Source of the DNA: a virus
Direction: 5' to 3' (one strand)
IMG/VR virus record: IMGVR_UViG_3300037067_022543
DNA length: 64,000 bases
The notes under the pieces are model-generated. The model had not been told where the DNA came from. It saw only the letters and a list, made by a program, of their open reading frames with translations, and searched no databases. Made by a program: the position numbers and the translations under genes. Below are positions 1-61,504 of the stretch, piece after piece (position 1 is the first letter of the stretch; each line of letters begins with the position of its first letter).

Positions 1-1766
1 CTAACAATATCTATTGGCTTGTTGTTAAATTCTTCAATACCATATTTCTTAATAGAGTTTCTAATCAAAGAGCGAGTGTGATCTGTAAGAAACTTTATAT
101 AGTTTTCAACATTGAACCATTTGTTAGGATCATCTACGAAATTAATTCTATATGACACTGATAACTCAACATCAACAAGATCCTTAGTAGTTGCTGAAAT
201 CTTATCTGACACTTTGTTGTTTTTAACTCTCAAATATGCCGTTTTAATTAACCTATCATCATTTTTAGGGGTTCCAGTTGAAAGTTCAAGAATTTCCGGA
301 TTTTCGTCATATTCAAACAAAATAGTTTTAGGACCAACAACTACTTTTCTGTCGCCGCTATTGTTAACAACTTGAACAGCGTAACCCGTCCAAACTTTAA
401 CTGTAACAGCTCCGTCATATTTACTATTTATTGTTATAGTTCTTGGCTCAGTGAATTTTGTATTTCTACTCATTTCGTCAGCAGCAAAATCCTCTGCTCT
501 GACATTATCAGTACTATACATACTCATGCTTCTACTAAGTTTACGAACATCAACAACTCCTGATTCATTTAAACCAATTGCAGACAAGTCGTTGCCAATT
601 TTTTTATTGTAATCTTTAGCTTCTGAATTGCCAGGGTACAACAAATCAATAACTTTATCAGACAACACCCGTTTAACAATTACTTCTTTTCTTGGATCTG
701 GTAGAAACATTTTTGGACCTTGCACCAGATTGACTTCTCCGTTCTCCTTATTAAGAACATAACGGGCTTCGCCTTTTGGTATGGCTATTGCATACATAAT
801 AGTATCTTTACCATATCTAATAATAGCATGTTCAGCTCTTGGGTAATAAATTTTTTGGTCTTTTCCCGTAATGAACATTTCATCGCCTTCACTATATGAT
901 TTATCGCCATCTTTATCACCATCTTTATAATCTGCAAGAACCTTAATGTGTATTCCCATGTTATCATTAAGTTCTAATGCTTTAAATACTCGCTTGCCGT
1001 CCTTTTCAACAAAAGTTTCTGTTGGTTTTGGAAAAACAACTGATGGTCCACGAACATATCTCTTATCTCCGTTTTCGTCTAGCAACCAACAATATTCCAA
1101 TCGTTCAAGGGTAACAGCTTCGCGAACATATTCTTGACCGTTTTCACTCTTCAATATTTCCAGACCAGTTGGTGGGATATAAAAAGAAACTTCCGTTCCT
1201 TTAATTATAATCAATTGCCCCATTTTTAGTTCTTGCGGATTAATTGCTGTTTTGACAACATTAGTTCCGTCAGTCAATTTAATTACGGATGTTCCCCAAA
1301 ATTTTTTGGCTTGTTCTTCATTATAAACTCTAGCCACCAAATACTGGTTAGATCTTAATTGATGACCTTGCACAACTTCACCAATTTGTCTTGGGAAAAG
1401 AGCAAAAGTGCATGGTCCAGAAATGTTTATTTTTCTCCCCATATCAAGAGAAGGAGATTGTTGCTTGCCTTTTTGCGGACGAGTTTCGTGATTACCAGTA
1501 GGGGGATTGGTCAAAATAATGTATTCGCCTTCATTTGCAGAAGGGCATTGGCGAATAGCTTCTGGCTTAGTAACCTTAACGAACTTACCTTTTTCAGAAC
1601 TATAAACTACTGGAGTATCAGTATCTGCTAAACTTTGTTTACTTGGGCCTACAATACTAAACACATCTCCACTAGAATTGTCTTGAACCAAAGCATATTC
1701 GCCTTGAGCTACGATTAGATCTCCCCCGCGTTCCATACGATTATTAACTTCATAGTCTACTGCCAT
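1..1766 (-). CDS. Major vault protein (MVP)-like protein, N-terminal ~588 aa; C-terminus runs off the window start
   Basis: ATG at 1766-1764 preceded by AAAGGAGAAAAACT. Translation MAVDYEV...YALVQDNSSGDVFSIVGPSKQ and ...KVLADYKDGDKDGDKSYSEGDEMFITG...SYRINFVDDP aligns with MVP repeat segments ([46 protein letters not shown]). Not in the ORF track because the minus ORF is open to position 1. Confidence 0.8.
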   Translation of the reverse strand, partial: MAVDYEVNNRMERGGDLIVAQGEYALVQDNSSGDVFSIVGPSKQSLADTDTPVVYSSEKGKFVKVTKPEAIRQCPSANEGEYIILTNPPTGNHETRPQKGKQQSPSLDMGRKINISGPCTFALFPRQIGEVVQGHQLRSNQYLVARVYNEEQAKKFWGTSVIKLTDGTNVVKTAINPQELKMGQLIIIKGTEVSFYIPPTGLEILKSENGQEYVREAVTLERLEYCWLLDENGDKRYVRGPSVVFPKPTETFVEKDGKRVFKALELNDNMGIHIKVLADYKDGDKDGDKSYSEGDEMFITGKDQKIYYPRAEHAIIRYGKDTIMYAIAIPKGEARYVLNKENGEVNLVQGPKMFLPDPRKEVIVKRVLSDKVIDLLYPGNSEAKDYNKKIGNDLSAIGLNESGVVDVRKLSRSMSMYSTDNVRAEDFAADEMSRNTKFTEPRTITINSKYDGAVTVKVWTGYAVQVVNNSGDRKVVVGPKTILFEYDENPEILELSTGTPKNDDRLIKTAYLRVKNNKVSDKISATTKDLVDVELSVSYRINFVDDPNKWFNVENYIKFLTDHTRSLIRNSIKKYGIEEFNNKPIDIV

Positions 1767-13614: not shown

Positions 13615-14061
13615 TTAATCCTTATGTTTTCCATATAACTGTCTATAACACTTAAAATACTTTATGGCATCTTTAACCCCGTTTAATATAGTAGCATCAT
13701 ATAGACAACCCTGAATCCATCCTGGGACATCCTGTATAGTTATATCATCAAAATAACAAACAATGGGTTTATTGTAAATAGCAGCAAAAGTTATTTCGCT
13801 TAATGTTCCTGCTCCTTTAAGAACTGCAGAATCTATTTTTACAAGAAAATGCTCGCAACGAATCAAGTTGTTAATGTCTCTAATAACAATATTATTAATT
13901 ACTTTTTGTTTATACAAAAAAGAACATTTTTTAGGAACCTTTATCTTGTCTGGAATAATGACATCATAATATTGCAAAAGAGATTCCTTAACTTCATTCC
14001 TCCAATTGAAAGGATCTTTTGATTTTTCTATTGCTCCTGACAAATATATACTTGGTTTCAT
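13615..14061 (-). CDS. nucleoside 2-deoxyribosyltransferase-like protein
   Basis: IYLSGAIE at the N-terminus and DSAVLKGAGTLSEITFAAIYNKPIV, matching the NDT/Rcl-type Rossmann motifs. Confidence 0.55.
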   Translation of the reverse strand: MKPSIYLSGAIEKSKDPFNWRNEVKESLLQYYDVIIPDKIKVPKKCSFLYKQKVINNIVIRDINNLIRCEHFLVKIDSAVLKGAGTLSEITFAAIYNKPIVCYFDDITIQDVPGWIQGCLYDATILNGVKDAIKYFKCYRQLYGKHKD

Positions 14062-15233
14062 AATTTACTTTCAATTTTTCCGCCACTAGTAATCTCTATA
14101 AATTCACATTTTTCCTGAAATTCTTTTAAGTTTTTAGCCCCAACATAAGAAAATGATGATTGCAAGCCATGTTTAATATGTTTTAAAATATGTTTAACAT
14201 GCCCCCTAAAAGGAGCCATTTTTGCAACTCCTTCTACAAATTCATTTGCATTTCCATTTGAAACTTTATTTTCTCCGCTAGCAGAACCAGCATAAACTTT
14301 ATAAAACTCCCCTCTTTCTCCTGTAAAAACATTTCCTGGAGTTTCTGTTGATCCGGACAACATGGAACCGAGCATAACTGCATGAGAATATTTTAAGCTC
14401 TTTGCAATATCTCCTATTGATGACATGCCTCCATCTGCAATTATCTTTATGTGTTTAATGCCTTGTCTTATAAACTCTTCATTAATTGATTCCAAAGCAT
14501 AAAGTTGAGGAACACCAACCCCCGTATTTTTCCTCGTTAAGCAGGCCGAACCAGGACCGACGCCGCACTTAATACAATCTGCTCCCCATTCTGCAATATC
14601 GTAAGCACCTTCTGGAGTTGAAACATTACCTGCTATAATATATATATCTTTTAATCCTTTTTCTTTTATCCATTTTAATATATTTTTCATTACTAAAGAA
14701 TGGCCATGGGCAATATCTATGCAAAATATTTTTGCTCCAGCTTCGTATAAACTGTCAAACCTTTTTTTATCTTCATCTTGAACTCCTATTGAAACTCCAA
14801 TTTCATGGTCTTTATTACAAATACTTTTAATATTAGGATGTATATTAAAAGTACTACTATTAAAACTACTACAAGATTCTGAATATTTATCTTCATCTTT
14901 TAAAATAACAGTTGAGTTTCCTAAACTAATAGTATTACTTATAAGCCCTTCATTAACAGAAAAATGGTTTTTAACTTCTAAAAAATCTTCTACAGCTTGT
15001 TCAATACTGCAAAATCTATGTAAAATTCCCATACCGCCATTTTCAATCATTGCTATTGACATTTTAACGCCGCAAATAGTCTTCATATTTGCTGCTATAA
15101 TTGGCAAATTTATCTTAAAAAATCCAAAATCACTAGATAAATCAACACTTCTTCTAGACTCTATTTCAGAATATTTGGGGACAATTAGTACGTCACTAAA
15201 TGTATATGCTTCTTTATTTATTTTTTTATCCAT
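14058..15233 (-). CDS. IMP dehydrogenase / GMP reductase family protein (no CBS insert)
   Basis: CIDIAHGHS and the catalytic loop GVGPGSACLTR of the IMPDH/GMPR TIM barrel. Confidence 0.8.
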   Translation of the reverse strand: MDKKINKEAYTFSDVLIVPKYSEIESRRSVDLSSDFGFFKINLPIIAANMKTICGVKMSIAMIENGGMGILHRFCSIEQAVEDFLEVKNHFSVNEGLISNTISLGNSTVILKDEDKYSESCSSFNSSTFNIHPNIKSICNKDHEIGVSIGVQDEDKKRFDSLYEAGAKIFCIDIAHGHSLVMKNILKWIKEKGLKDIYIIAGNVSTPEGAYDIAEWGADCIKCGVGPGSACLTRKNTGVGVPQLYALESINEEFIRQGIKHIKIIADGGMSSIGDIAKSLKYSHAVMLGSMLSGSTETPGNVFTGERGEFYKVYAGSASGENKVSNGNANEFVEGVAKMAPFRGHVKHILKHIKHGLQSSFSYVGAKNLKEFQEKCEFIEITSGGKIESKL

Positions 15234-24895: not shown

Positions 24896-25864
24896 TCATG
24901 GTTTTATGCTCTGGGAACAAATAAGATCTTTATTATCCCAGAAATGTTTTAATGCTACCTGTGTCAATCTCTCAACAAATTGTGCAGGACTATCACCTTC
25001 TCCCTTTTCTACTATTTTATCAATAAACTCAGGACAATCTGACAATATCCTTTTAGCTATTTTTATCCTACAATCCTTATCTAATTTCTTTAATTCAAAT
25101 GCCCTATCTATTCTGCCTGGTCTAGTTGAAATATTTGTTCCGTTAGGATCTTTATCAGTTCTTGGCTTCCCTAACGCTTCATCTAATAATTCTACTCTAT
25201 TCGTAGTTACTATGAGAAATAATCCATCTGTATTTTGAACACCGTCTATGCAATTTAAAAAACAATCAAATGTTAATAAATCTAAATTATTATTTCTATT
25301 TCTAACATTTTCTCTGCCGTTAAAAACAGCATCAACATCTTCAATTAATGCTATACATGGAGTACTTCCTAACATATTTGACCATTCTTTGCAAAATTCA
25401 TAATTAGACATACCAGAAATATCAAAAAAATGAATTGGTAAATCAAGATGCTGACCTATTGCCTTAGCTAAAGAAGTCTTACCTGTATTATGAGAAACTA
25501 TATGATTTGAATAATAACTATGTGCGTTGCTTTTTACTTCAATGTCGTAAGTATCTTTAATGCCAATATATTCTTTTGCAATTACTTTATCTAAACCAGT
25601 TTCTGTTAAAACAGAGTCTTTCCCAACCACAATGTCTTCTGCCGATTTCCATTTTTTATTTTTGCTCATAACCAAATGATCATCGGAACATCCTAAAGAT
25701 AGTCCACCATTAGTTCTCAATATGTATGCATTTTTATTTTTTTTATTATAAACATCTCCTATTTCCATCCACCCATCGGGAGTTTCTATTTCGTATATTC
25801 CGTCTTCATCAACTATTTTAAAAAAATCTTCTATTGAAATTTCTTTTTCGTCTCCAATTTGCAT
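24896..25864 (-). CDS. C-terminal intein fragment (~129 aa) fused to the C-extein of a BCS1-like AAA+ ATPase
   Basis: Intein block B LGCSDDHLVMS and blocks F/G DTYDIEVKSNAHSYYSNHIVSHN, followed by +1 Thr and TGKTSLAKAIG (second half of Walker A); sensor LIVTTN; SD AGGA 6 nt before the ATG. Confidence 0.7.
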   Translation of the reverse strand: MQIGDEKEISIEDFFKIVDEDGIYEIETPDGWMEIGDVYNKKNKNAYILRTNGGLSLGCSDDHLVMSKNKKWKSAEDIVVGKDSVLTETGLDKVIAKEYIGIKDTYDIEVKSNAHSYYSNHIVSHNTGKTSLAKAIGQHLDLPIHFFDISGMSNYEFCKEWSNMLGSTPCIALIEDVDAVFNGRENVRNRNNNLDLLTFDCFLNCIDGVQNTDGLFLIVTTNRVELLDEALGKPRTDKDPNGTNISTRPGRIDRAFELKKLDKDCRIKIAKRILSDCPEFIDKIVEKGEGDSPAQFVERLTQVALKHFWDNKDLICSQSIKP

Positions 25865-25902: not shown

Positions 25903-26784
25903 CTACTGGACTATTATTTTTTTGTGCTTGCCATCATTGGACTTTTTTCTTATTTTTATCTTTGTTTCAGCAAGAACACATCCAGGGCTTCCGAAAAGTA
26001 GCCACCCTCTTTTCCAAGGGATAGATTTTGACCTATACCACTTCTCGCTATCCTTCCATCTTTCCATTTCTCCTACTAATGCATCTATTTCTTTTGGAAA
26101 AGCTAATACTTGCAAACTTCTTTTTTCGTCTTGATCTTCTCCTATATCATCAACTTTATATTTTAATATTCTTTTATCTCCAAGAAAAACATCTACATTG
26201 CATGTTATTGTTGCCATTCCTCCATCAGATGGAGCATACTTAGCTGTTTTTTCATCACCATTGCAAGATCGTCCTATGTGTCTATAAATCGTAAATCTAG
26301 ATCTTTTATCATTTTTAATACTCCTTTGATTTAATAACTCTATAGCGTCTATCATTAATTGTTCAATATCAAATGTTCCTCTAATAAAAGAAATAGATGC
26401 AGAACGTTGTTCTCCAATTTCAGATGATGTAACGGGCCTGTTATCATCCTTATTATCAGACATTGAAATAATTAATGGTTTCCAACCCTTCCAAAAAATT
26501 GTTTTGTCTTTAAAATTGACTTCTTCATATCCAATTATATGATGCTTTTTTATACTTTTGATATAATCTCTAAATGTTGAAAAAGAAAGCGGTTGAAATG
26601 GTGATCTTCTAAAATTTTTGACTAAATATACTTCCATCGCTTTTGGCAAATTTCTATCAATTCTAATAGTGACAATAAATAAACTTGATACTCTAGAAAA
26701 TAAAAACTTAATTTTACTCCAAACCAAACCAATAGTGGTAAATATTGCAGCTCCACCAAATACTGTTTCTAAATTATTTAACAT
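25903..26784 (-). CDS. N-extein of BCS1-like AAA+ ATPase (TM anchor, ...KRGWLLFGSPG) fused to a 25-aa N-terminal intein fragment (CVLAETKIKIRKKSNDGKHKKIIVQ)
   Basis: The extein ends in the first half of Walker A (GSPG), directly followed by Cys1 and block-A-like CVLAET; stop after 25 intein residues. Confidence 0.7.
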   Translation of the reverse strand: MLNNLETVFGGAAIFTTIGLVWSKIKFLFSRVSSLFIVTIRIDRNLPKAMEVYLVKNFRRSPFQPLSFSTFRDYIKSIKKHHIIGYEEVNFKDKTIFWKGWKPLIISMSDNKDDNRPVTSSEIGEQRSASISFIRGTFDIEQLMIDAIELLNQRSIKNDKRSRFTIYRHIGRSCNGDEKTAKYAPSDGGMATITCNVDVFLGDKRILKYKVDDIGEDQDEKRSLQVLAFPKEIDALVGEMERWKDSEKWYRSKSIPWKRGWLLFGSPGCVLAETKIKIRKKSNDGKHKKIIVQ

Positions 26785-27325: not shown

Positions 27326-27775
27326 CTACATATTTTTTCTGCAATAAAAAAACGCCACAATTCCTCCAATAACAAAACATATAAAAAATATTAAAAATGG
27401 AAGATTATCATTCTGTTTTTTAATTAACTTTGCGTTTTCAATTGTTGGGCCAATAGTAATATTATTATCTATATTAGTTTTTAAAATATGGGAATGTGCC
27501 GAATGATACAAAAATATTGGGACAACATTATAAAATTGTTTATACTGCGATATTCTGAAATTATAATACATAGGATTGTTTATAATTGGTTTTCTTACCA
27601 TCCTATATGGTTTTACCATTTTAGAAGGGTTTGGTCTATTAACATGTATAGAACGATTAATATGGGTTGAATGATTAATATGTACGGAATGACTAATATG
27701 TACCGGCCTAGCAAAACAAATAGTTCCCCAAATAAACATAAATATAATTAATGTCTGTGTATTTATTGTTTTCAT
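27326..27775 (-). CDS. secreted/membrane His-rich repeat protein
   Basis: Signal peptide, repeats VHISHSVHINHSTHINRSIHVNR, C-terminal TM helix. Confidence 0.5.
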   Translation of the reverse strand: MKTINTQTLIIFMFIWGTICFARPVHISHSVHINHSTHINRSIHVNRPNPSKMVKPYRMVRKPIINNPMYYNFRISQYKQFYNVVPIFLYHSAHSHILKTNIDNNITIGPTIENAKLIKKQNDNLPFLIFFICFVIGGIVAFFYCRKNM

Positions 27776-28875
27776 AAATATTTTTTATAAAAGTCTCCTC
27801 CTATTTTACCTATTGATCTAATAGCACTTGAAGAAATGTAATCGTATTCTCTACCACAAGGAATAAAAACAACCGAAATATTACCACCATATTTATCCTC
27901 AATAAATCTCAACTGATTAATCTCATAGTTGAAATCGTAACCATTTCTTAAGCCACGAATTAGTGTAACATTTGCATAGGCTTCTATTGATTTGATATAA
28001 TCTGACAAAAAACCAGAAAATGAGTCAACTTCATGAAAAGGAATTACAGATCTAATTTTATCTATATTATCATCTATATTGCCTTCTTTAAGGTTGTCTT
28101 TTTCTGGATTGCGACCAACAGCAATAATTACCTTATCAAAAAGCTTTTCTGCTTTTTCTAAAATATTACTATGCCCAATATGAAAAGGATTAAATGATCC
28201 AGCATAAATCCCAATATTTGGCACATAATTTTCTACATGTTTTATCAATAAAGAAATATTATGACGGTTTTTAAAGCACTTATCATGATTTTTCATTGAG
28301 TTTAAAAATTTAATTCTGCCTTCTTTATACTTATTATAATTATAAAATTGATATTCTTTTAAAATAAGATTATCATCTCTCAATAGTTCGTTAACATTAC
28401 CATAAATAAATGTCCATAAATCTGCCTCATTAAACCATTGAGATAATTTTGTTGTTCCTTCTTGATTTCCATACTGAGTTTCAAGAATCATTTTTTTAAT
28501 AATATTGGTATTAGATTTGTTGGCTTTCCCTGAAACAGAGCTTACAGCAACAAACCAATCTGATGAAAGTTCTTCATTATTGCTCACCCTATCTGAAGTT
28601 GGTCTTTTAGGATCATAAACCACATCATGGAAAAGAGCTACAAGTTGTAAAATTTCTCTTTCTCTGGAAGTATGATGAAATGAATCAATAAGATTAAACA
28701 AAAAACTTATGTGTTTAATATCGTGATAATACCTGTGTTTTTGTTCATAAGCATTAAGAGCATCATTAACAACTTCATTAATTCTTCCGCCAAAAAGATT
28801 ATTGGCAATTGAATTATGAAATAAAAGTTCTTCAATTGATTTTCTAATTGTTCTTTTGTCTAATAAACTTCCCAT
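27772..28875 (-). CDS. HD-domain protein fused to a phosphopantetheine adenylyltransferase (CoaD)-like nucleotidyltransferase
   Basis: N-terminal H...HD motifs (HDIKHISF, ALFHDVVYDP); C-terminal GIYAGSFNPFHIGH, LIRGLRNGYDFNYE and ISSSAIR, colinear with CoaD motifs. Confidence 0.7.
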   Translation of the reverse strand: MGSLLDKRTIRKSIEELLFHNSIANNLFGGRINEVVNDALNAYEQKHRYYHDIKHISFLFNLIDSFHHTSREREILQLVALFHDVVYDPKRPTSDRVSNNEELSSDWFVAVSSVSGKANKSNTNIIKKMILETQYGNQEGTTKLSQWFNEADLWTFIYGNVNELLRDDNLILKEYQFYNYNKYKEGRIKFLNSMKNHDKCFKNRHNISLLIKHVENYVPNIGIYAGSFNPFHIGHSNILEKAEKLFDKVIIAVGRNPEKDNLKEGNIDDNIDKIRSVIPFHEVDSFSGFLSDYIKSIEAYANVTLIRGLRNGYDFNYEINQLRFIEDKYGGNISVVFIPCGREYDYISSSAIRSIGKIGGDFYKKYL

Positions 28876-28901
28876 ATAATCTCCTCAAAACCATAGTCAT
28901 T

Positions 28902-29660
28902 TTAAATCCATTGTTCAATATAATTTCTGTCTTGTGTAAAAATTGGAATTGTGCGATCTTCAATAATATCTGTTCTGAAAACATCGTGATCGCTAATGTT
29001 TTTTTTAGCCTGTTTTTTATATAAGCAAATGCCGCGTTTCTTCCATATGTCTATATTATTCCAATTTATGCCTTTTTCTTTAAAAAGTTTTTCCTGAACT
29101 TGATCGTTATTTAATCCAGACATTTCCTTATGAGAAAAGTTTGCTTGTCCAAGTCCCTGAATACTATTTCTGGTACAATCATTTTGTCTCCAAATAAAAT
29201 AGTTGCAAACTTCTTCTTTAGGCAATACAAAGGCTCTGGAATCAAATAGTCCACAATCACTAATTTCTGGTGATTTTAAATTTAGAAATATAAAACATTT
29301 ATTAAAGCATATAGTAGCAATGGATGCAGATACACTAACAATTTTTTGAAGATTCTTTTCAAACCAAGCTTGCGTGTAAATATTTTCGTAATCTGTTGCC
29401 AAAATGCTGATTTCGTCAGATTGAATATAAGCTAACTTTGAACCTTGAATTTCTTCAAGCAAACCCCTGCCTGTATCAACCATAGCCATTGCAAAATCTT
29501 CATCGAAAGGCTTTTGAAATCCACTCCTTTGTGTAAAACTATGAAACGCCTTTCCATCAACTCTAATAATTAAAGGCATTCTACGAGTAAGATAATGAAG
29601 ATTAACTTCCTCGTACTGCTTCATACGATTTCCTAAAGAATCTGTTTCTATTGTTTTCAT
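28902..29660 (-). CDS. Thg1-like protein (tRNA-His guanylyltransferase / 3'-5' polymerase family)
   Basis: LIIRVDGKAFHSF, IQSDEISIL and FDSRAFVLP match Thg1/TLP catalytic motifs. Confidence 0.8.
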   Translation of the reverse strand: MKTIETDSLGNRMKQYEEVNLHYLTRRMPLIIRVDGKAFHSFTQRSGFQKPFDEDFAMAMVDTGRGLLEEIQGSKLAYIQSDEISILATDYENIYTQAWFEKNLQKIVSVSASIATICFNKCFIFLNLKSPEISDCGLFDSRAFVLPKEEVCNYFIWRQNDCTRNSIQGLGQANFSHKEMSGLNNDQVQEKLFKEKGINWNNIDIWKKRGICLYKKQAKKNISDHDVFRTDIIEDRTIPIFTQDRNYIEQWI

Positions 29661-29668
29661 TATTTTTC

Positions 29669-30514
29669 CTAATTATTTATAACAAAAATTTCTTCATTTT
29701 CATCAAATTTGCCATCATCCCACCAACGAACATCTGGAAAACACCAATTCAATTTCATTTCGTCATATATCATTTTGTTAGTTTCTGTGTTCTGAATATA
29801 TAACCTTATAGGCTTTATTTTCATAATGTCAACATATCTCGTCCTCAAATGTATAAAAGTATTCCAACTATGAACACTAATTCCAATGCCATCAATGTAG
29901 CCGTCAACCATCTTGACAAAGTTTTTAGTTAGAAATATTCCATTCGTTTGAAGATAAATTGGAGTATCCTTTGCAGCTTTCCGTCTCAAACAGCAAAGTA
30001 TAGCAACTAATTTAGGATAAAGCAAAGGCTCTCCACCAGAAACAATAATAGTTCTATATTTTTTTAAGTCAACTTCCTTCCCATCAAGATTAAAAATTTT
30101 TCCATTAAAATCTTGAAGTGGAATCCACTTTTTACTATATTCTTCCAACTTATTAATGCAATACTCGCACTTTAGATTGCAAGCCAAAGTAACCTTAATT
30201 CGGCATTTTGTTTTTTTAACAAAATTAAATTTGTTTTCTGTTTCCTTTTTCCGACCAGTATATAATTCCCAACAAATTGGACAACACTCATCTTTCGTAT
30301 GAAACTTACCTTGACTCCCGCTCAAATGATAATCCTTGCCAATTTTACCGCATAATGTTTTGCTATGTACTAACAAAATTGGTTCTATTGGTGAAATAGG
30401 AATATGCACCCATTTATCGTCAGAATAACAAAGTTCCATATATGGCATTATTTTTCTCCCATCAATCATAACATAAATCATAATTATTTTATGCACCAAT
30501 ATTGTATCCCACAT
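29669..30514 (-). CDS. radical SAM domain protein
   Basis: CNLKCEYC (CxxxCxxC) and SGGEPLL. Confidence 0.7.
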   Translation of the reverse strand: MWDTILVHKIIMIYVMIDGRKIMPYMELCYSDDKWVHIPISPIEPILLVHSKTLCGKIGKDYHLSGSQGKFHTKDECCPICWELYTGRKKETENKFNFVKKTKCRIKVTLACNLKCEYCINKLEEYSKKWIPLQDFNGKIFNLDGKEVDLKKYRTIIVSGGEPLLYPKLVAILCCLRRKAAKDTPIYLQTNGIFLTKNFVKMVDGYIDGIGISVHSWNTFIHLRTRYVDIMKIKPIRLYIQNTETNKMIYDEMKLNWCFPDVRWWDDGKFDENEEIFVINN

Positions 30515-31416: not shown

Positions 31417-31874
31417 ATGAAAATTACACCTTGCGGCTCAAAAATACAAATAAATAGCGACAATCTCAATCGTTTTATAACAGCACAATCAGAAAATTAT
31501 AACAATGCCATTTCCGAATTAAAAAATGGGCAAAAGAGAACACATTGGATATGGTTCATCTTTCCACAAATTGATGGTTTGGCCATAGTTCAACGACAAA
31601 ATACTATTCTATAAAAAATTCAGAAGAAGCCAAACGATATTTGGAACATCCTATTCTTGGAGCAAGACTTCTGGAATGTGCCAAAACTCTTCTTGCTATT
31701 GAAGGACAACCAATCATTAAAATACTCGGAACGCCAGACGACTTGAAACTAAAATCTTCTATGACATTGTTTGCATCTATCTCAAATGGAGAAAATATAT
31801 TTAATGAAGTCATTGATAAATACTTTAATGGCAAATATGATGATGCTACGATTAGGTTGCTGGACAAGGTTTAA
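31417..31874 (+). pseudogene. DUF1810-like gene with an apparent -1 frameshift (track ORFs 31417..31614 and 31641..31874 are one gene)
   Basis: Frame a carries HWIWFIFPQIDGL and frame c continues GHSSTTKYYSIKNSEEAKRYLEHPILGARL. Re-reading one G at ggtttggcc restores ...FPQIDGLGHSS... Confidence 0.6.
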
Positions 31875-31916: not shown

Positions 31917-32783
31917 TTATAACGAATTATTATGCCTTACCCTATAATAAGAAACATATTTCTTTAACTTTTCAATACTTCTTTTAGAAAGATTAGAACG
32001 ATCTATCCCATATTTTTCAACTAATGCTTCAATCAAATCATTTGCAATTTCTTCATTAGATTTATTCCAGTCTACCTTAGACCAATCATATTTTCTGTTT
32101 GGACTATACTGCAATGTTTCAGGAGCGTATAAAGTTCTATATCTAGAAACCAATGATCTACTAATATTATATTCTTCTGCAATTTCTCTATTAGACTTAC
32201 TCCAATCAACTTGCGGTCCTAAAACAGACCAATCATATTGAGTGGGAATTGAATGAACTGTATTTGGGGCAAAAGTCTTCCTATTTCTTGGAACTGAACC
32301 AATAGAAACACCATTTTCTATGGCAATTTCTTCATTAGGCTTATTCCAGTCCACCTTAGACCAATCTATATTTTTTGGTCCAGAATTAAGTTTTGTATCA
32401 GGGGCTAATTTTGATCTCATTCCAGATATATGATCATAGCTCAAACCAATTTCTTGTGCAATTTCTTCATTAGATTTATTCCAGTCCACCTTAGACCAAT
32501 CTGGTTTTACTATTGTATTTGGGGCTAGTTTTCTCCTCATAAAACTAACATATCCCATGGGGGCTCCTATTTCTTGAGATATTTCTTTGTTTGTTTTATT
32601 CCAATCAACCTTGGAAAAATTATATTTCGGTTGCATTGTTTCTGGAGCGTATCTCTTTCTCATTCTAGAGACATAAACAGAAGACGCCCCTGATTCTTTT
32701 GCAATTTCTGATGTTGATTTGTTCCAATCAACCTTGGAAAAATCATATTCAGAAGCTATTTTATACATTGTGTACCAGTTCAT
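31917..32783 (-). CDS. tandem HTH-like repeat protein (MNWYTMYK...; repeats DWSKVDWNKSNEEIAQEIG..S.....MR.K.AP.T)
   Basis: About seven ~35-aa repeats; paralog of 34102..35052. Confidence 0.55.
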   Translation of the reverse strand: MNWYTMYKIASEYDFSKVDWNKSTSEIAKESGASSVYVSRMRKRYAPETMQPKYNFSKVDWNKTNKEISQEIGAPMGYVSFMRRKLAPNTIVKPDWSKVDWNKSNEEIAQEIGLSYDHISGMRSKLAPDTKLNSGPKNIDWSKVDWNKPNEEIAIENGVSIGSVPRNRKTFAPNTVHSIPTQYDWSVLGPQVDWSKSNREIAEEYNISRSLVSRYRTLYAPETLQYSPNRKYDWSKVDWNKSNEEIANDLIEALVEKYGIDRSNLSKRSIEKLKKYVSYYRVRHNNSL

Positions 32784-34101: not shown

Positions 34102-35052
34102 TTAAAGTTGAAAATTATTGTCTAATTGAGAAGATTTATACCAGTTGAAAGAAGAAAACAATGATTTTAACGGTTCGGTCTCTTGTGGATTTGGTTTGTG
34201 AAGATAATGTCTAACTTTTCCAACATATGCTGTTAATTTTTCAAGATATCTTTCTGGAAGTTTAGACGGATCAAAATCTGGTTCTTTTTTTAACTCTTCA
34301 ATTAAAAATTCTGCTATTTGTCTATCTTTTTTATTCCAATCTACCAATTCCCATTTTAATTTTCTAGGTTGTTTTCGTAATGTCCATGGAGCATATTTTT
34401 TTCTATATCTAGAAATATATGCTGGATCAACATCTTTTTCTTCTGCAATATCTGTTGTTCTTCTAATCCCCCATGCAATTTGTGGACCTTCAGTTGTCCA
34501 GTCTGTTTCCTTCTCATAACGCTTAATAGTATCATTAGCCCAAAACGCCCTCATAGCGTGAACATAATGTATATTTCTATCGGTTTCTATTGAAATTTCC
34601 TTATCGGATTTTACTTTCCATTCCACTTTTGCCCAGTCAACTTTAGCTATTGTATCTGGAGCACATCTCCTCCTCATGCGAGAAACACTAGTGGGATGAA
34701 GTCCTGTTTCTTGAACAATTTGCTTTGTTGATTTGTTCCAATCAATATCGGAACATTTTAAATATTCTTTTATTGTATCTAAAGCAAAACGTCTTCTCAT
34801 TTTTCCAACTTGGTTTTCTCCCTTCCCAATTTCTTGAGATATAACTTTGTTAGACTTGCTCCAGTCTATTTTTGACCAATCAAAATACTTAGTTTTTGTT
34901 TCAGGAGCACATATTACTCTTAAATGATAAATATAACTCATACTTAGTCCAGTTTCTTGCGAAATTTCAGCAGTGGATTTGCTCCAATCTATATCTGAAC
35001 AATCATATTTTGGTTTGCTGTATGTAGTTTTATATAATGTATACCAATTCAT
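34102..35052 (-). CDS. tandem HTH-like repeat protein (MNWYTLYK..., paralog of 31917..32783)
   Basis: Same repeat unit (IDWSKSNKVISQEIG...). Confidence 0.55.
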   Translation of the reverse strand: MNWYTLYKTTYSKPKYDCSDIDWSKSTAEISQETGLSMSYIYHLRVICAPETKTKYFDWSKIDWSKSNKVISQEIGKGENQVGKMRRRFALDTIKEYLKCSDIDWNKSTKQIVQETGLHPTSVSRMRRRCAPDTIAKVDWAKVEWKVKSDKEISIETDRNIHYVHAMRAFWANDTIKRYEKETDWTTEGPQIAWGIRRTTDIAEEKDVDPAYISRYRKKYAPWTLRKQPRKLKWELVDWNKKDRQIAEFLIEELKKEPDFDPSKLPERYLEKLTAYVGKVRHYLHKPNPQETEPLKSLFSSFNWYKSSQLDNNFQL

Positions 35053-35171: not shown

Positions 35172-36214
35172 AAACTGGTGCTCCTGGCAGGAATTAAACC
35201 CACTTCTACGGGATGAGAACCAGTCGTTTTATTCGGTAAACTATAGGAGCCAAAATTCTTAATCCTATCTAAAAAACTGTCCAATTTGTTTTCTGGATAT
35301 AAATCTGACGGTATTATTTCTATAAATTTTAAATTGTTGTCTTTTACTATTTTGCGTTTGAGTTCTACTACTTTATCATATTCTTCCACCTGCCCTATTA
35401 AACCGAAATATTCTACCAATATATTATAATATGGTAAATAAAAATCACAATCCATATTGCTATTGGGATATTTTTTATTTCTTTCGTGATTTATTTTATT
35501 TATAAAAAACCAATCGTCTACTATTTTTTCAGATATGCTGTCTGCCATATGATTGTCTTGACATTTCAATCTAGTTTTTTGAAATTTACTTTTGTTTGGT
35601 TTTAATCCGCAAAAACTAACGGCTTTATTCCATGTTCCAAAAAATCTTATGGTAGCAGACAATAATCTTATTAAACAATCTCTTTTTTGAGGAGTTCTAT
35701 TAATTTTTTGAGATAATTGTATTATTTTATTAATTACTTCGTCTTTGGTATATGGAGAAAATCCAAACTGATATATTTTTCCGCATTTTGCAGAACAACA
35801 CTTGATTCTTTTTCTCGATGGATGGAATTTTTTTCCACAAATAACGCAGTTCATTTCTTCAAGCATTATTTTATTTTGTGTTTTAAGATATTTTCTAATT
35901 GAATTTCTAGTTTTTTCTGATATTTCTTTTCTTTTTTCATCACTAAAAATTCTATTTTTATTATTTACTACTGCTGCACAAGAATTGCAACAATAAAATT
36001 TCTTTGTTTTACTTCTTTTATAATCACAATTTCCAACCACAATATCTTTTCCACAGTTATAACATTTTAGATTTTTAGATTTTGTTTTAAATTGTATTCT
36101 GCATTCTTTGCTACAAAAAAACTTCCATTTTTGTTTATTCGACCAATTATAATTCCTAGCTGGCATACCAAAATGATGGTGGCAGAAAGAACACTCGACA
36201 TCAATATCTACCAT
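35162..36214 (-). CDS. N-terminal zinc-ribbon repeats + C-terminal DUF559/Vsr-like endonuclease-fold protein
   Basis: Multiple CxxC pairs; DCDFYLPYYNILVEYFG matches the DUF559 core. The ORF as called reads through tRNA-like 35176..35251, so the true 3' end is uncertain. Confidence 0.5.
   Translation of the reverse strand: MVDIDVECSFCHHHFGMPARNYNWSNKQKWKFFCSKECRIQFKTKSKNLKCYNCGKDIVVGNCDYKRSKTKKFYCCNSCAAVVNNKNRIFSDEKRKEISEKTRNSIRKYLKTQNKIMLEEMNCVICGKKFHPSRKRIKCCSAKCGKIYQFGFSPYTKDEVINKIIQLSQKINRTPQKRDCLIRLLSATIRFFGTWNKAVSFCGLKPNKSKFQKTRLKCQDNHMADSISEKIVDDWFFINKINHERNKKYPNSNMDCDFYLPYYNILVEYFGLIGQVEEYDKVVELKRKIVKDNNLKFIEIIPSDLYPENKLDSFLDRIKNFGSYSLPNKTTGSHPVEVGLIPARSTSLVS
35176..35251 (-). tRNA. 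tRNA-like element (possible Glu, anticodon CTC) with acceptor and anticodon-stem mismatches and a non-canonical T-loop
   Basis: Manual fold GCTCCTA...CAGGAGC A CCA; T-loop TTTAATT lacks C56. Confidence 0.3.
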
Positions 36215-36395: not shown

Positions 36396-36487
36396 TGGTC
36401 AGAGGGGTGGGATTTGAACCCACGATTACCTTGCGGTTTTCCTCCTGCGCCCAAGGCAGGCGTTCTACCAAGCTGAACTACCCTCTG
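36396..36487 (-). tRNA. tRNA-Pro-like (anticodon TGG, G37) with a 20-nt variable region containing a GNRA-capped hairpin (ACC-GCAA-GGT)
   Basis: Perfect acceptor CAGAGGG/CCCTCTG, Pro-type D-loop AGCTTGGTA, anticodon arm CCTGC-CTTGGGC-GCAGG, T-arm GTGGGTTCAAATCCCAC; variable region AGGAAAACCGCAAGGTAATC. Confidence 0.55.
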
Positions 36488-36686: not shown

Positions 36687-36729
36687 ATAATTATGCATTA
36701 TTAAGTTTTCAAATAACAAAACTAAAAAT

Positions 36730-36804
36730 GGTCCGGACCATCCAGAATCGAACTGGAGCCTTCAAGTTCACAGCATGACGGGCTACCACTACCCCATAGT
36801 CGGC
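36730..36804 (-). tRNA. tRNA-His-like (anticodon GTG) with genomically encoded G-1; one C.C mismatch in the acceptor stem
   Basis: Anticodon arm TCATG-CTGTGAA-CTTGA, T-arm TCCAGTTCGATTCTGGA, G immediately 5' of acceptor CCGACTA; the 3' side is TGGTCCG-G-ACCA. Confidence 0.45.
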
Positions 36805-36813
36805 ATCAAAAAG

Positions 36814-36900
36814 TCGGGAAGGTCGGATTTGAACCGACAATGCATTATTTCAGCTCCTGCTTCCAAAGCAGGTCGAGTACCAGTTATCTTCTACTTCCCG
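36814..36900 (-). tRNA. degenerate tRNA-like element (anticodon TGG, A37; irregular D-arm; 17-nt variable region), no CCA
   Basis: Acceptor CGGGAAG/CTTCCCG and T-arm GTCGGTTCAAATCCGAC are intact; the anticodon stem CCTGC/GCAGG is identical to that of tRNA-Pro-like 36396..36487. Confidence 0.35.
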
Positions 36901-36937: not shown

Positions 36938-37011
36938 TCGAGCAGGACAGCTTCTCTCCAGCGACCTTCACATCACAAACGTGCCGTTCTACTGAACTGA
37001 ACTACTGCTCG
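36938..37011 (-). tRNA. degenerate tRNA-like element (pseudo-tRNA; anticodon TGT region; T-arm destroyed)
   Basis: Acceptor CGAGCAG/CTGCTCG and D-stem GTTC/GAAC are present; T-loop replaced by AGAGAAG; shares the 3' trailer ACTTTTTGATG with 36814..36900. Confidence 0.3.
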
Positions 37012-42585: not shown

Positions 42586-43146
42586 TTAATTATATTCAAC
42601 CATCCAATCATCGGCTAACATATCTTTAATGTCACAAAAAAGTTCATGATCTTCTATATAATTTTCACTTTCCCTTACCAACAGCAGTTCGCCGTCTTCA
42701 GATCTGGAAACAGCAATCATATCCATGCCTTCTCCTCTTGTACGCCAACCTTTTCTACAAGCTCTTTTACCATTAAGAATTTCACGCAATGGAAACTGAC
42801 GACAAACAACCCAACCTTCTAGTTCACAATGCGAATCACGTGAATCACTTAGACCTAATTTATTAATTTCCCAAGGATGTCTTATTCCATTTAAAAAATC
42901 ATCATCTATCCAAATTTCAACAGAACTAATTTGTTCTATATCTGATTTATATTTCCTACCATCAAAATATTCAACTCCTATAACTACTGTTTCTTTTCCT
43001 GTTAAATTGTCATGAACTTTTTCACCAACAAAGAAAGGAAGATTTATGGTTTTAGATGGTGGTAGATTAATTTTAGTTTCTATAACAATATTATCCCCAA
43101 CATTATAATTTATAGTTTTATTCATAGCAATGATATTATTTCCCAT
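42586..43146 (-). CDS. hypothetical protein (186 aa)
   Basis: Minus-strand ORF. Confidence 0.45.
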   Translation of the reverse strand: MGNNIIAMNKTINYNVGDNIVIETKINLPPSKTINLPFFVGEKVHDNLTGKETVVIGVEYFDGRKYKSDIEQISSVEIWIDDDFLNGIRHPWEINKLGLSDSRDSHCELEGWVVCRQFPLREILNGKRACRKGWRTRGEGMDMIAVSRSEDGELLLVRESENYIEDHELFCDIKDMLADDWMVEYN

Positions 43147-58060: not shown

Positions 58061-59983
58061 TTATTTCTTTTTATCATCAACCATTTCAAAATCAGCATCA
58101 ATTACATCACCTTGTGCATCTTTTTTGTCTTTAATGTTATCAGATGTTTGTTCAGATGTTTTTTCTTTAGAATTCTTTGCTTTTTCATATAATTCAGAAG
58201 AAACAGAATGCATAGATTCATTAAGTGATTCCATTTTTTCCTTAATTGTCTTAACATCTTCAGATTTAATGGCAGATTTCAATTCTTCTATTTTCTTTTC
58301 AACATCTATTTTTTTATCAGAAGAAATCTTTTCAGAATTATCTTTCAGCATTTTCTCTGTTTGATAAACAACATTTTCTGCTATGTTCTTTGTTTCGATT
58401 TTTTCCCTTGAATCCTTATCTTCTTGAGAATGTTCTTCTGCATCTTTAACCATTTCTTTAATTTCTTTTTCAGTCAATCCACTAGATGCTGTTATGGTTA
58501 TCTTTTGTTCCTTATTTGTTCCCAAATCTTTTGCAGAAACATGTAAAATACCATTAGCATCTATATCAAATGCCACTTCTATTTGAGGTGTTCCACGCAT
58601 AGCAGGAGGAATACCATCAAGATGAAAACGCCCTAATGATTTATTACCTTTTGCCATTTGTCTTTCGCCTTGCAAAACATGTATTTCTACGGCAGGTTGG
58701 TTGTCAGCTGCAGTACTAAATATTTCTGACTTGCGTGTTGGTATGGTGGTATTTCTCTCAATCAATTTTGTATAAACTCCACCCAATGTTTCTATCCCTA
58801 AAGAGAGGGGAGTAACATCTAACAGCAACACATCTTTTACATCTCCCTTAATAATACCTCCTTGTATAGAAGCCCCAACTGCAACTACTTCATCTGGATT
58901 AACGCCTTTATGAGGTTCTTTTCCAAATGTCGCTTGAACAACATCTTGAACTTTAGGCATTCTGGTCATTCCTCCAACCATAACAACTTCATTAATATCT
59001 TTATAATCCAAACTAGAATCTTTCACGCATTTTTTGACTGGTGAAAGAGTTCTGCTAATTAAATCATCAACTAGTTGTTCTAGTTTAGATCTGGACAAGT
59101 TAATATTTAAATGTTTTGGTCCAGAAGCATCAGCAGTAATAAAAGGAAGATTAATATCAGTTTGTTGAGATGAAGATAACTCACATTTAGCTTTTTCAGC
59201 AGCTTCCTTCAATCTTTGCAAAGCCATACTATCTTTTGACAAATCAATGCCGTTATCTTTTTTGAATTCAGAAGTCAACCATTGGATAATAAGTTGATCA
59301 AAATCATCTCCACCAAGATGGGTGTCACCATTAGTAGATTTAACTTCAAAAACTCCATCTCCTATATCCAAAATAGAAATATCAAAAGTTCCACCACCAA
59401 GATCATAAACAGCAATCTTTTCATCCTTCTTTTTGTCCATACCATAGGCTAAAGAAGCAGCAGTTGGCTCATTAATTATTCTTAACACTTCAAGACCAGC
59501 AATCTTTCCAGCATCCTTTGTGGCTTGCCTCTGACTATCATTGAAATATGCTGGCACAGTTATAATTGCTTGTGTAACACTTTCCCCCAAATAAGATTCT
59601 GCATCTGTTTTCAACTTTTGCAAAATCATAGATGATATTTCAGGAGGAGAATAAGTCTTGCCATCTACTTCAACATGGGCATCACCATTTTTTGCTTTTA
59701 CTATTTTATATGGTACTAATGATATTTCGTGAGCTACTTCATCATATTTTCTTCCCATAAACCTTTTAATTGAATAAACAGTGTTTTTGGGGTTAGTCAC
59801 TGATTGCCTTTTAGCTGATTGCCCAACAAGCCTTTCTCCGCTTTTAGTGAATGCTACTATTGAAGGAGTTGTTCTACTGCCTTCTGCATTTGGAATAACA
59901 ACAGGTTGCCCGCCTTCCATAACAGCCATACAGCTATTTGTAGTTCCCAAGTCTATACCTATAACCTTATTCGATTTAGCCAT
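58061..59983 (-). CDS. dnaK: Hsp70 chaperone DnaK (bacterial type)
   Basis: [33 protein letters not shown]; full-length 640 aa; TATAAT and AAGGAA upstream. Confidence 0.9.
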
Positions 59984-60024
59984 TTTTTATTTCCTTTCGA
60001 TGTTATTTTTTATTATACAATATA

Positions 60025-60435
60025 TTAATCTATTTTTATTAATGAAACATATGGTTCTTTTTTTGCTTTTGGAATAATAATTTCCAGTACTCCTTCTTTA
60101 TATGAAGCTTTAACATTTTCAATAACTATATCTTCTGGAATTAAAATTGAACGACTAAATGAACCATAAAACCTTTCTTGAATAGGAATATTAACCAGTT
60201 GTTCATTTTCAATTTCATTCTTTTTTTCTCCACTAATAGACAATATGTTATTGTCTTCTATACTAATTTTTATTTCTTCCTTTTTCATGCCAGGAATGCT
60301 AAACTTAAATAAAAATAAATCTTCCCTTTCAATAGCATCCATTTCTGGAAATGTTTTTTTACATTCCATATCACCAAATATACTTCTAGCAATACCGATA
60401 CCGTTAACAGATCTACTACAACTTGAAGAATTCAT
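60025..60435 (-). CDS. Hsp20 / alpha-crystallin family small heat-shock protein
   Basis: Alpha-crystallin domain (SISGEK...ERFYGSFSRSILIPEDI...EGVLEIIIPK); SD AAAGGAGG. Confidence 0.8.
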   Translation of the reverse strand: MNSSSCSRSVNGIGIARSIFGDMECKKTFPEMDAIEREDLFLFKFSIPGMKKEEIKISIEDNNILSISGEKKNEIENEQLVNIPIQERFYGSFSRSILIPEDIVIENVKASYKEGVLEIIIPKAKKEPYVSLIKID

Positions 60436-61348: not shown

Positions 61349-61421
61349 ATTTTTCAAAGAGCATTTGCAATTTTAGTTTAAATAGTCTCAACCACGTAAA
61401 GGTATTGCATATATGAGACCG

Positions 61422-61504
61422 CTCCATCGGTAGGACTTAAACCTACAAACCCTTACGGGCGTCTGGTTAACAGCCAGATGCGGTTATCATTTCGCCACGA
61501 TGGA
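61422..61504 (-). tRNA. atypical tRNA-Asn-like (anticodon GTT) with a 15-nt variable region forming a CCC-GTAA-GGG (GNRA) hairpin; G18G19 and C56 not conserved
   Basis: Acceptor TCCATCG/CGATGGA, anticodon arm TCTGG-CTGTTAA-CCAGA, T-arm GTAGGTTTAAGTCCTAC. Confidence 0.45.

Follow-up and report, generated by a model that had tools for sequence, protein, structure and literature searches.

A Thg1-like protein, an HD-CoaD fusion and a radical SAM protein encoded side by side in a large tailed-phage-like genome

The 64,000-nucleotide stretch of viral DNA analysed here (IMG/VR virus record IMGVR_UViG_3300037067_022543; hereafter the window) contains three consecutive minus-strand genes, which encode a 281-aa radical S-adenosylmethionine (SAM) protein (29669-30514; open reading frame (ORF) listing and PF04055), a 252-aa bacterial-type Thg1-like protein (TLP; 28902-29660; PF04446, PHROG 4717 and PDB 4KGK) and a 367-aa protein in which an N-terminal HD domain is fused to a C-terminal nucleotidyltransferase domain of the CoaD type (27772-28875; ORF listing and homologue architecture). 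An earlier note on this DNA had described the three genes at exactly these positions and proposed that they form a tRNA 5'-end repair or maturation module. Its quoted motifs are all present: CNLKCEYC in the radical SAM protein; IIRVDGKAFHSF, SDEISIL and FDSRAFVLP in the TLP; and GSFNPFHIGH, LIRGLRNGYDFNYE and ISSSAIR in the fusion. Profile searches likewise returned the domains it had named (PF04055 at 3.8e-13; PF04446 at 2.5e-30; PF01467 at 2.1e-13 over residues 223-354 of the fusion). A fourth co-directional ORF of 149 aa (27326-27775, minus strand; ORF listing) overlaps the fusion stop codon by 4 nt. Its product is His-rich with a hydrophobic C-terminus and has no match in Pfam, PHROG or PADLOC, and the ORF is kept downstream of the fusion in two relatives of the window (L006 and L007; L numbers denote fetched loci). 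We hold it to be probable that these three, in fact four, genes are packed co-directional accessory genes of a large tailed-phage-like genome, each most likely working alone.

The gene content of the window is of the large tailed phage type, with UvrD, DnaK/Hsp70, Hsp20, several DNA methyltransferases, a 5'-3' exonuclease, FliW and about 15 tRNA genes, together with an IMPDH/GMP-reductase-like gene and a major-vault-protein-like fragment. The window has a G+C content of 30.0%, and its 24-36 kb region gave no megablast match among GenBank phages. The database copy of the fusion protein comes from a single metagenomic contig of 103,289 bp.

Sequence comparisons identify the middle gene product as a genuine Thg1-family enzyme that is predicted to be active. 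It matches PF04446 with 105.5 bits (Pfam cut-off 29.2) and PHROG 4717 ("tRNA-His guanylyltransferase") at 1.8e-87 with 294 bits; the match to Thg1C (1.2e-4, 22.8 bits) lies below the cut-off of 26.3. The protein aligns over its full length with the Bacillus thuringiensis TLP (BtTLP, PDB 4KGK; E 1.8e-71), and archaeal, fungal and human Thg1 family structures match at about 1e-11 to 1e-18. The alignment to 4KGK shows the catalytic carboxylates intact: D35, D82 and E83 correspond to D30, D75 and E76 of BtTLP and to D29, D76 and E77 of human THG1. Their loss, which the earlier note had named as a ground for refuting its reading, is thus not observed. With residue roles taken from work on BtTLP (PMC3701042), the activation-step residues K50 and S81 (BtTLP K43 and S74), the triphosphate-binding arginines R33, R142 and R158 (BtTLP R28, R131 and R147) and E17 (BtTLP E12) are likewise kept, and H40 is also conserved. 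The carboxylates, K50, S81, the three arginines and E17 are invariant in an alignment of 9 viral TLPs.

The eukaryotic HINNLYN motif is absent from the window protein, which has TRNSIQGLGQ at that place, and in the alignment WRQNDCTRNSIQGLGQ stands opposite WRQVDCHINNLYNT of Candida albicans Thg1. The HINNLYN region is specific to eukaryotes and reads the His anticodon. Because this region is absent and the Thg1C score falls below its cut-off, we file the protein as a TLP and not as a eukaryotic-type Thg1. Human THG1 (PDB 3OTB; E 6.5e-13) shares the palm-domain fold family and the carboxylates with it; unlike the eukaryotic enzyme, a TLP that lacks HINNLYN is expected to be template-dependent and unspecific for tRNA-His. 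The sequence thus predicts an enzyme that adds nucleotides 3'-5' to tRNA 5' ends under the direction of a template, and not one dedicated to adding G-1 to tRNA-His.

Repair of tRNA 5' ends is the established expectation for bacterial-type TLPs. In the mechanism we envisage, the TLP would activate a tRNA 5'-monophosphate with ATP or GTP and then add Watson-Crick-templated nucleotides in the 3'-5' direction. In infected cells this would restore acceptor stems, of host or phage tRNAs, that are truncated at the 5' end. The family and the residues are read from the alignments above; activity, substrate and biological trigger we infer from BtTLP and other TLPs.

A phage TLP is not new, and a role in tRNA 5' repair has already been proposed for it. 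The window protein is about 50% identical to Bacillus phage TLPs, and tblastn recovered homologues from 164 GenBank phage records, where the annotation is almost without exception tRNA-His guanylyltransferase and the hosts include Bacillus, Prevotella, Caulobacter, Mycobacterium, Erwinia and Vibrio; in IMG/VR, at least 446 stretches with a TLP were confirmed. Compared with BtTLP (4KGK/4KGM) and the phage TLPs of PHROG 4717, the carboxylates and the activation and transfer residues are identical and the proteins are alike in being stand-alone and about 250 aa long. There is no family-level difference; what sets the window copy apart is its place in an uncultured, AT-rich large phage beside an HD-CoaD fusion. 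Anantharaman et al. 2010 (PMC2904730) proposed that Thg1 of large DNA viruses has roles in RNA repair, and Iyer et al. 2021 (PMC7824862) counted it among the enzymes with which jumbo phages repair tRNAs by restoring their 5' nucleotides; no enzyme assay of any phage TLP was found in the literature searched. With phage TLPs thus catalogued and a 5'-repair role for them in print, the novelty that the earlier note claimed for its module is not supported.

The C-terminal domain of the fusion (residues about 219-365; 27781-28221, minus strand; PF01467 and TIGR01510) matches more than 30 solved structures of phosphopantetheine adenylyltransferase (PPAT), the activity of CoaD, at E values from 1e-11 to 6e-19 and with 30-35% identity. 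The CoaD motifs HxGH (FHIGH), K259, RGLR..D..YE (RGLRNGYDFNYE) and ISSSAIR vary little or not at all among 22 homologues. The fusion scores 100.2 bits with TIGR01510, the equivalog model for CoaD, just under the cut-off of 103.3, while the models for nicotinamide mononucleotide adenylyltransferase (NMNAT), NaMNAT, FAD synthetase and cytidylyltransferase each give at most 27 bits. The earlier note had regarded a robust classification as bona fide CoaD as telling against its module, and the protein comes close to that classification, with this score and with CoaE partners in at least nine viral contigs.

The N-terminal HD domain (residues about 40-205; 28261-28758, minus strand) is divergent, and the earlier domain call is right for this half as well. 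It matches PHROG 19425 at 2.6e-17; the PF01966 (HD) match lies below the Pfam cut-off for the fusion and is weak in 11 of 17 homologues. The metal-ligand pattern H...HD...D is present, and H47, R48, H51, H55, H83, D84 and D152 are invariant. In an AlphaFold model (17 homologues; pLDDT 93.8) the predicted fold of the domain resembles that of cyclic-nucleotide phosphodiesterases. A search for an AcpH-like acyl carrier protein phosphodiesterase gave an hhalign probability of 0.1% (with an approximate sequence of E. coli AcpH as the query), and we rejected that identity; AcpH serves for this domain purely as a possible functional analogy.

The HD family is large (14,421 representative clusters at E ≤ 0.001), and its members either stand alone (about 180-220 aa; "predicted metal-dependent HD superfamily phosphohydrolase" in IMG) or are fused. 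The fusion itself has 1,421 homologues, which keep the architecture at 320-390 aa. It is present in the genomes of more than 300 bacterial species, with 317 tblastn-confirmed stretches, including RefSeq genomes of Xanthocytophaga, Raineya, Thermonema, Rhodocytophaga and Mucilaginibacter and many metagenome-assembled genomes of Lentisphaeria/Victivallales, Ignavibacteria and others. Compared with CoaD as modelled by TIGR01510, the fusion shares HxGH, K, RGLR..D..YE and ISSxxxR and stays 3 bits under the equivalog cut-off, but it always carries the phosphodiesterase-like N-terminal domain and forms a family of its own. Among the closest known systems are the NadD-YqeK pairs and fusions of the NCBIfam NF005519 type, which likewise combine an HxGH adenylyltransferase with an HD hydrolase.

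The most specific contextual signal for the fusion family in viral contigs is CoaE. A hidden Markov model (HMM) search for CoaE took in all ORFs of all fetched loci, and its matches were solely genes within 500 nt of a CoaD-like gene or fused to one. CoaE adjoins or is joined to the fusion in at least nine viral contigs (L019, L030, L035, L041, L047, L049, L069, L073 and L075); the CoaE ORF overlaps in L019, and L075 has a CoaD-CoaE fusion. In L119/L120 CoaE comes after a CoaD-like gene that stands alone. Pfam confirms the assignment (PF01121) in five of all these loci. Across the phage contigs CoaE precedes, follows or joins the HD-CoaD fusion, at locus positions of about 10-11.7 kb. PPAT and then dephospho-CoA kinase (DPCK) catalyse the last two steps of coenzyme A (CoA) synthesis. 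The eukaryotic bifunctional CoA synthase unites PPAT and DPCK in one protein, and the viral relatives that adjoin or join CoaE recreate this pair; the window fusion differs from these arrangements in having no CoaE neighbour.

We favour a CoA pathway (salvage) role for the fusion over work on tRNA because of the CoaE partner, the CoaD score and the phosphodiesterase-like HD fold. The C-terminal domain would convert 4'-phosphopantetheine and ATP to dephospho-CoA, and the HD domain probably hydrolyses a phosphodiester, either to provide or regenerate the substrate of the PPAT or to clear away a side product. What is seen directly is the CoaD-like sequence and the CoaE partner; the substrate is predicted, and the part assigned to the HD domain is suggested by its fold and by the fusion. 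Auxiliary metabolic genes reported earlier from viruses include coaD and coaE (PMC11097641). Among the bacterial fusion loci, none of the 80 examined (from the 317 stretches) has a TLP, this radical SAM gene, CoaE or an NAD-related gene within 6 kb.

The radical SAM protein matches PF04055 at 50.4 bits (cut-off 29.5), with a clear SAM-binding core (residues about 100-281; 29669-30217, minus strand) in which C112, C116 and C119 of the CxxxCxxC motif (30158-30181) are invariant. It has 12 homologues in a database of 5.8 billion protein sequences, most of which are bare cores of 171-185 aa. A Cys-rich N-terminal extension of about 100 residues occurs only in the window and in L006 and was modelled at low confidence. 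Viperins are its best Foldseek matches (E 3e-5), with the core alone aligning; NCBIfam scores are 53.9 for viperin (NF038283; cut-off 180) and 51.6 for MoaA (cut-off 284), and a PADLOC defence-system search gave a single match, a partial one of this protein to the pVip core. With viperin and MoaA it has the CxxxCxxC motif and the SAM-binding core in common, and viperins are its best Foldseek, NCBIfam and PADLOC matches; it differs in aligning over the core of about 175 aa only, without the C-terminal nucleotide-binding extension. We class it on its sequence as a rare minimal viperin/MoaA-like core. As viperin and MoaA both act on nucleotides, it probably acts on a nucleotide as well.

No tie between the radical SAM protein and tRNA is in evidence. 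In L172, which encodes a 49% identical homologue, the gene adjoins an RF-1-domain gene and a GATase-QueC-like gene, and there is no TLP. That neighbour, together with a weak match to the QueE-like PHROG 2076 (5.3e-5), was the basis for considering the protein as QueE of the 7-deazaguanine pathway, an identity we rejected given that no QueC, QueD, FolE, Tgt or DpdA was found among the window ORFs scanned and that Foldseek favours viperins.

The order radical SAM gene, TLP gene, fusion gene is synteny inherited in one phage clade and not a general functional module. In the close relatives L006, L007, L174 and L175 the DNA is 72-82% identical to the window. L006 keeps the order, its three proteins sharing 56, 92 and 85% identity with their counterparts in the window, and L174 and L175 have the radical SAM gene, an 84-aa ORF, the TLP and the fusion. 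A more distant relative (L008; 46-57%), which we place in the same broad clade because FliW, the 5'-3' exonuclease and the AAA ATPase are common to both, has the fusion, two genes and then the TLP, and no radical SAM gene within 8 kb. Outside this clade the partners separate. Among the best 80 of the at least 446 IMG/VR stretches with a TLP, a CoaD-like gene lies within 10 kb in 3 of 80, this HD domain in 0 of 80 and this radical SAM gene in 0 of 80; conversely, about 31 other viral HD-CoaD fusion loci in IMG/VR have no TLP within 10 kb, and the 80 bacterial fusion loci have none either. What stands of the earlier reading is that the middle gene encodes a real TLP, for which 5'-end repair is expected; the three-gene module and its novelty are not supported, and of the several imperfect tRNA stems that it invoked one is borne out.

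Several observations nevertheless weigh against genes that each work alone. The gaps between the radical SAM gene, the TLP, the fusion and the fourth ORF are 8 nt, 26 nt and -4 nt, which fits co-transcription. The proximity of fusion and TLP outlasts the rearrangement in L008. A TLP lies within 6 kb of 9 of 72 non-redundant viral CoaD-like loci (two from the window clade and seven from one other lineage), which exceeds the naive expectation for two rare genes, although no more than 3-4 independent lineages stand behind it; in six contigs of an unrelated viral lineage (L036, L045, L050, L052, L059 and L076) the order is a stand-alone CoaD-like gene, Prs, a small ORF and the TLP, and in L055 and L119/L120 the CoaD-like gene and the TLP lie within 5-7 kb. 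As for the CoA assignment, the CoaD score stops just short of the equivalog cut-off, and the window ORFs include no CoaE, NAMPT, Prs, Nudix, NADAR or Sir2 gene. Co-transcription of the four ORFs is plausible. The minus strand is densely filled across nearly the whole window, however, so that tight spacing is weak evidence, and a promoter and terminator consensus scan (39 promoter-like sites against 35 expected; 0 terminators) was uninformative on operon boundaries.

The strongest rival, which we still consider unlikely, sees the radical SAM protein, the TLP and the HD-nucleotidyltransferase as a joint phage tRNA 5'-end repair or maturation module that counters host tRNA nucleases; for example, the HD domain could trim ends or remove phosphates, the nucleotidyltransferase activate, the TLP refill and the radical SAM protein modify the product. 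The shared strand and tight spacing, the adjacency kept in the clade and the proximity that survives in L008 are what such a module would look like, as is the joint recurrence of CoaD-like gene and TLP in a second viral lineage. All four domains have nucleotide use in common, and bacterial TLPs are known beside other end-healing enzymes, their genes associating with polynucleotide kinase, macro-domain and RNA-ligase genes (PMC2904730). The locus counts argue the other way: in 77 of the 80 best TLP loci no CoaD-like gene lies within 10 kb, and neither this HD domain nor this radical SAM gene occurs in any of the 80. The recurrent partner of the fusion is CoaE, its nucleotidyltransferase domain is near bona fide CoaD, and the radical SAM family, with its 12 homologues, includes one in L172 without a TLP. 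Neither RNA ligase, polynucleotide kinase, CCA-adding enzyme, RtcB nor a macro domain was found among the roughly 50 window ORFs scanned, which were mostly those of about 115 aa or more. Nor are tRNA genes enriched at TLP loci, 21 of 80 of which have one within 10 kb, against 35 of 70 CoaD-like loci.

A second rival, to which we give little credence, holds that the CoaD-like domain is an adenylyltransferase for NMN or a related substrate and that the HD domain processes ADP-ribose-type phosphodiesters, the fusion serving as a counter-defence against NAD+-depleting immunity. PPAT and NMNAT are alike in fold and chemistry, and phage NAD+ reconstitution pathways are established. NAD and ADP-ribose genes occur within 10 kb of 22 of 70 non-redundant viral CoaD-like loci (NAMPT 13, Prs-type, including Adps-like, 12, Nudix 14, NADAR 5, Sir2 6, and ARH) against 1 of 80 TLP-centred controls (Fisher p = 2e-7, uncorrected for phylogeny). 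The profile scores speak for CoaD, with at most 27 bits for the NMNAT models against 100, and the CoaE genes adjacent or fused in at least nine contigs fit CoA synthesis and not NAD. NAMPT, Prs and Nudix genes are absent from the window, and elsewhere the NAD genes usually lie kilobases off, as expected of a shared accessory-gene island. We read these surroundings as cofactor-salvage accessory islands.

Two gene orders recur in these islands. One viral lineage (for example L059, 2765-12550) has, in conserved order, NAMPT, NADAR and Sir2 at intervals, then a small ORF, the stand-alone CoaD-like gene, a Prs-type gene, a small ORF and the TLP; the Prs-type gene of this lineage (L036/L045/L050/L052/L059/L076) is possibly Adps-like. 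In L181 (1-7128) and L012, a Nudix gene, a TROVE (Ro60-like) gene and NAMPT are followed by the HD-CoaD fusion. Both look like NAD+-reconstitution and RNA-quality-control islands.

The third rival concerns the tRNA genes. The earlier note had set the three genes next to these, and the tRNA cluster is in fact about 6 kb distant. ARAGORN finds 13 tRNAs in the window and Rfam 15. The 7-bp acceptor stem is fully paired in 12 of the 13 ARAGORN tRNAs, at least nine of these 12 with an encoded CCA, and one tRNA-like sequence seen by Rfam alone is mismatched at 7:66. Imperfect acceptor stems had been ascribed to several tRNAs; the top of the stem is abnormal in tRNA-His alone, at pair 2:71. This tRNA-His(GTG) gene (36733-36803 within 36729-36804, minus strand; ARAGORN and Rfam) does have the encoded G-1 that had been described, at 36804. 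In the register given by ARAGORN and Rfam its acceptor has a C2·C71 mismatch, G73 and then ACCA, with G-1 unpaired; an alternative register has seven pairs, a bulged C, and then A73 and CCA. The anticodon stem contains a U·U pair, and the minimum-free-energy fold is not a cloverleaf. The gene is either decaying or in need of unusual processing.

Relatives of this tRNA-His were sought by a pattern search of IMG/VR, which gave no match, and by a metagenome scan, which gave two (L176 and L177). The sequence is identical in L176 (2429-2499), where the flanking coding DNA is 84% identical to the window; the defect is therefore a retained one and not an assembly error. L177 (2394-2467), a 77% relative, has a canonical tRNA-His with G-1:C73 and CCA that folds cleanly, and the matching phage contig from the same sample, L174, carries a TLP. 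Since the lineage with the canonical tRNA-His has a TLP too, the TLP predates the defect and is independent of it.

According to this third rival, the TLP is retained because the phage's own tRNA-His needs its 5' end rebuilt or extended in the 3'-5' direction after RNase P, as in mitochondrial tRNA 5' editing or G-1 addition. A looser reading, separate from this rival, is that the recurrent proximity of CoaD-like gene and TLP in 3-4 viral lineages could reflect a biochemical link between adenylyltransferase and 5'-end activation. We regard both readings as very unlikely. The tRNA is indeed the only one with a 2:71 defect, conserved in L176, and in place of the bacterial G-1:C73 pair it has G73-ACCA or a bulged C and A73. 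TLPs are reported to edit exactly these positions in amoebozoan mitochondria (PMC5041481, PMC6471195), and the window resembles the mitochondrial systems (DdiTLP3 of Dictyostelium; Acanthamoeba) in that a TLP is co-resident with a tRNA mismatched within the first three acceptor pairs. It differs from them in that one tRNA is affected, no 5'-trimming nuclease was identified and the TLP is kept in a relative whose tRNA-His is normal. Templated addition opposite A73 or G73 would moreover yield U-1 or C-1 and not the G-1 needed by HisRS, the U·U pair and the fold suggest that the gene may be decaying, and tRNA-His lies near only 2 of the 80 best phage TLP loci. Were the dependence real, it would be the first TLP-mediated tRNA 5' editing or maturation outside mitochondria, and a virus-encoded one.

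Further tRNA features of the window include two tRNA-Pro(UGG) genes and a tRNA-Asn(GUU) gene (36396-36487, 36813-36900 and 61421-61504, minus strand) with long variable arms and total lengths of 84-92 nt, which is unusual for these isoacceptors. Weak Rfam-only tRNA-like sequences lie at 35179-35250 and 36938-37011.

Outside the three genes, an AAA ATPase is encoded as two adjacent ORFs (25903-26784 and 24896-25864, minus strand) that match consecutive parts of PHROG 7485, with a break inside Walker A (…GSPG|C… / …SHN|TGKT…). The break corresponds to an atypically split, VidaL-like intein, whose N-fragment measures about 25 aa and whose C-fragment about 126 aa; among solved structures the joined intein matches best the ultra-short split intein VidaL (6VGV, E 6e-10), with gp41-1 and NrdJ-1 next. 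A DUF1810 gene is split on the plus strand (31417-31614 and 31641-31874), the first half matching PF08837 positions 2-44 at 1.7e-18, and is a frameshifted or pseudogenised copy. At 1-1766 (minus strand) a large protein that continues past the window end carries repeat and shoulder domains of the major vault protein (PF17795 and PF11978), unusual for a phage. The ORFs at 31917-32783 and 34102-35052 (minus strand) contain repeats of about 35-50 residues with helix-turn-helix-like units of the form "(D)WSKVDWNKSNEEIA…" and many weak helix-turn-helix matches. The product of 42586-43146 (minus strand) gave a weak match to Tad2 (Thoeris anti-defence 2), with 22.1 bits against a cut-off of 25; if real, it would place an NAD-signal sponge in the same phage. 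A full-length Hsp70/DnaK gene (908 bits) adjoins Hsp20 at 58061-60435 (minus strand), and at 13615-15233 (minus strand) the IMPDH/GMP-reductase gene adjoins a nucleoside 2-deoxyribosyltransferase-like gene.

A viral multi-enzyme tRNA 5'-end repair system, if it existed, would add a new layer to the conflict between phage and host over tRNA. The evidence reduces the locus to one more phage TLP, a CoA-type auxiliary metabolic gene and an orphan radical SAM gene. The abundance of phage TLPs makes them a good target for studying 5'-end repair against acceptor-stem nucleases, and the aberrant, conserved tRNA-His offers a cheap test case for TLP-dependent maturation. The HD-CoaD fusion represents a large uncharacterised family, spread over more than 300 bacterial species and present in many phages, where CoaE often comes next; together, fusion and CoaE suggest a CoA salvage route that would start with the cleavage of a phosphodiester.

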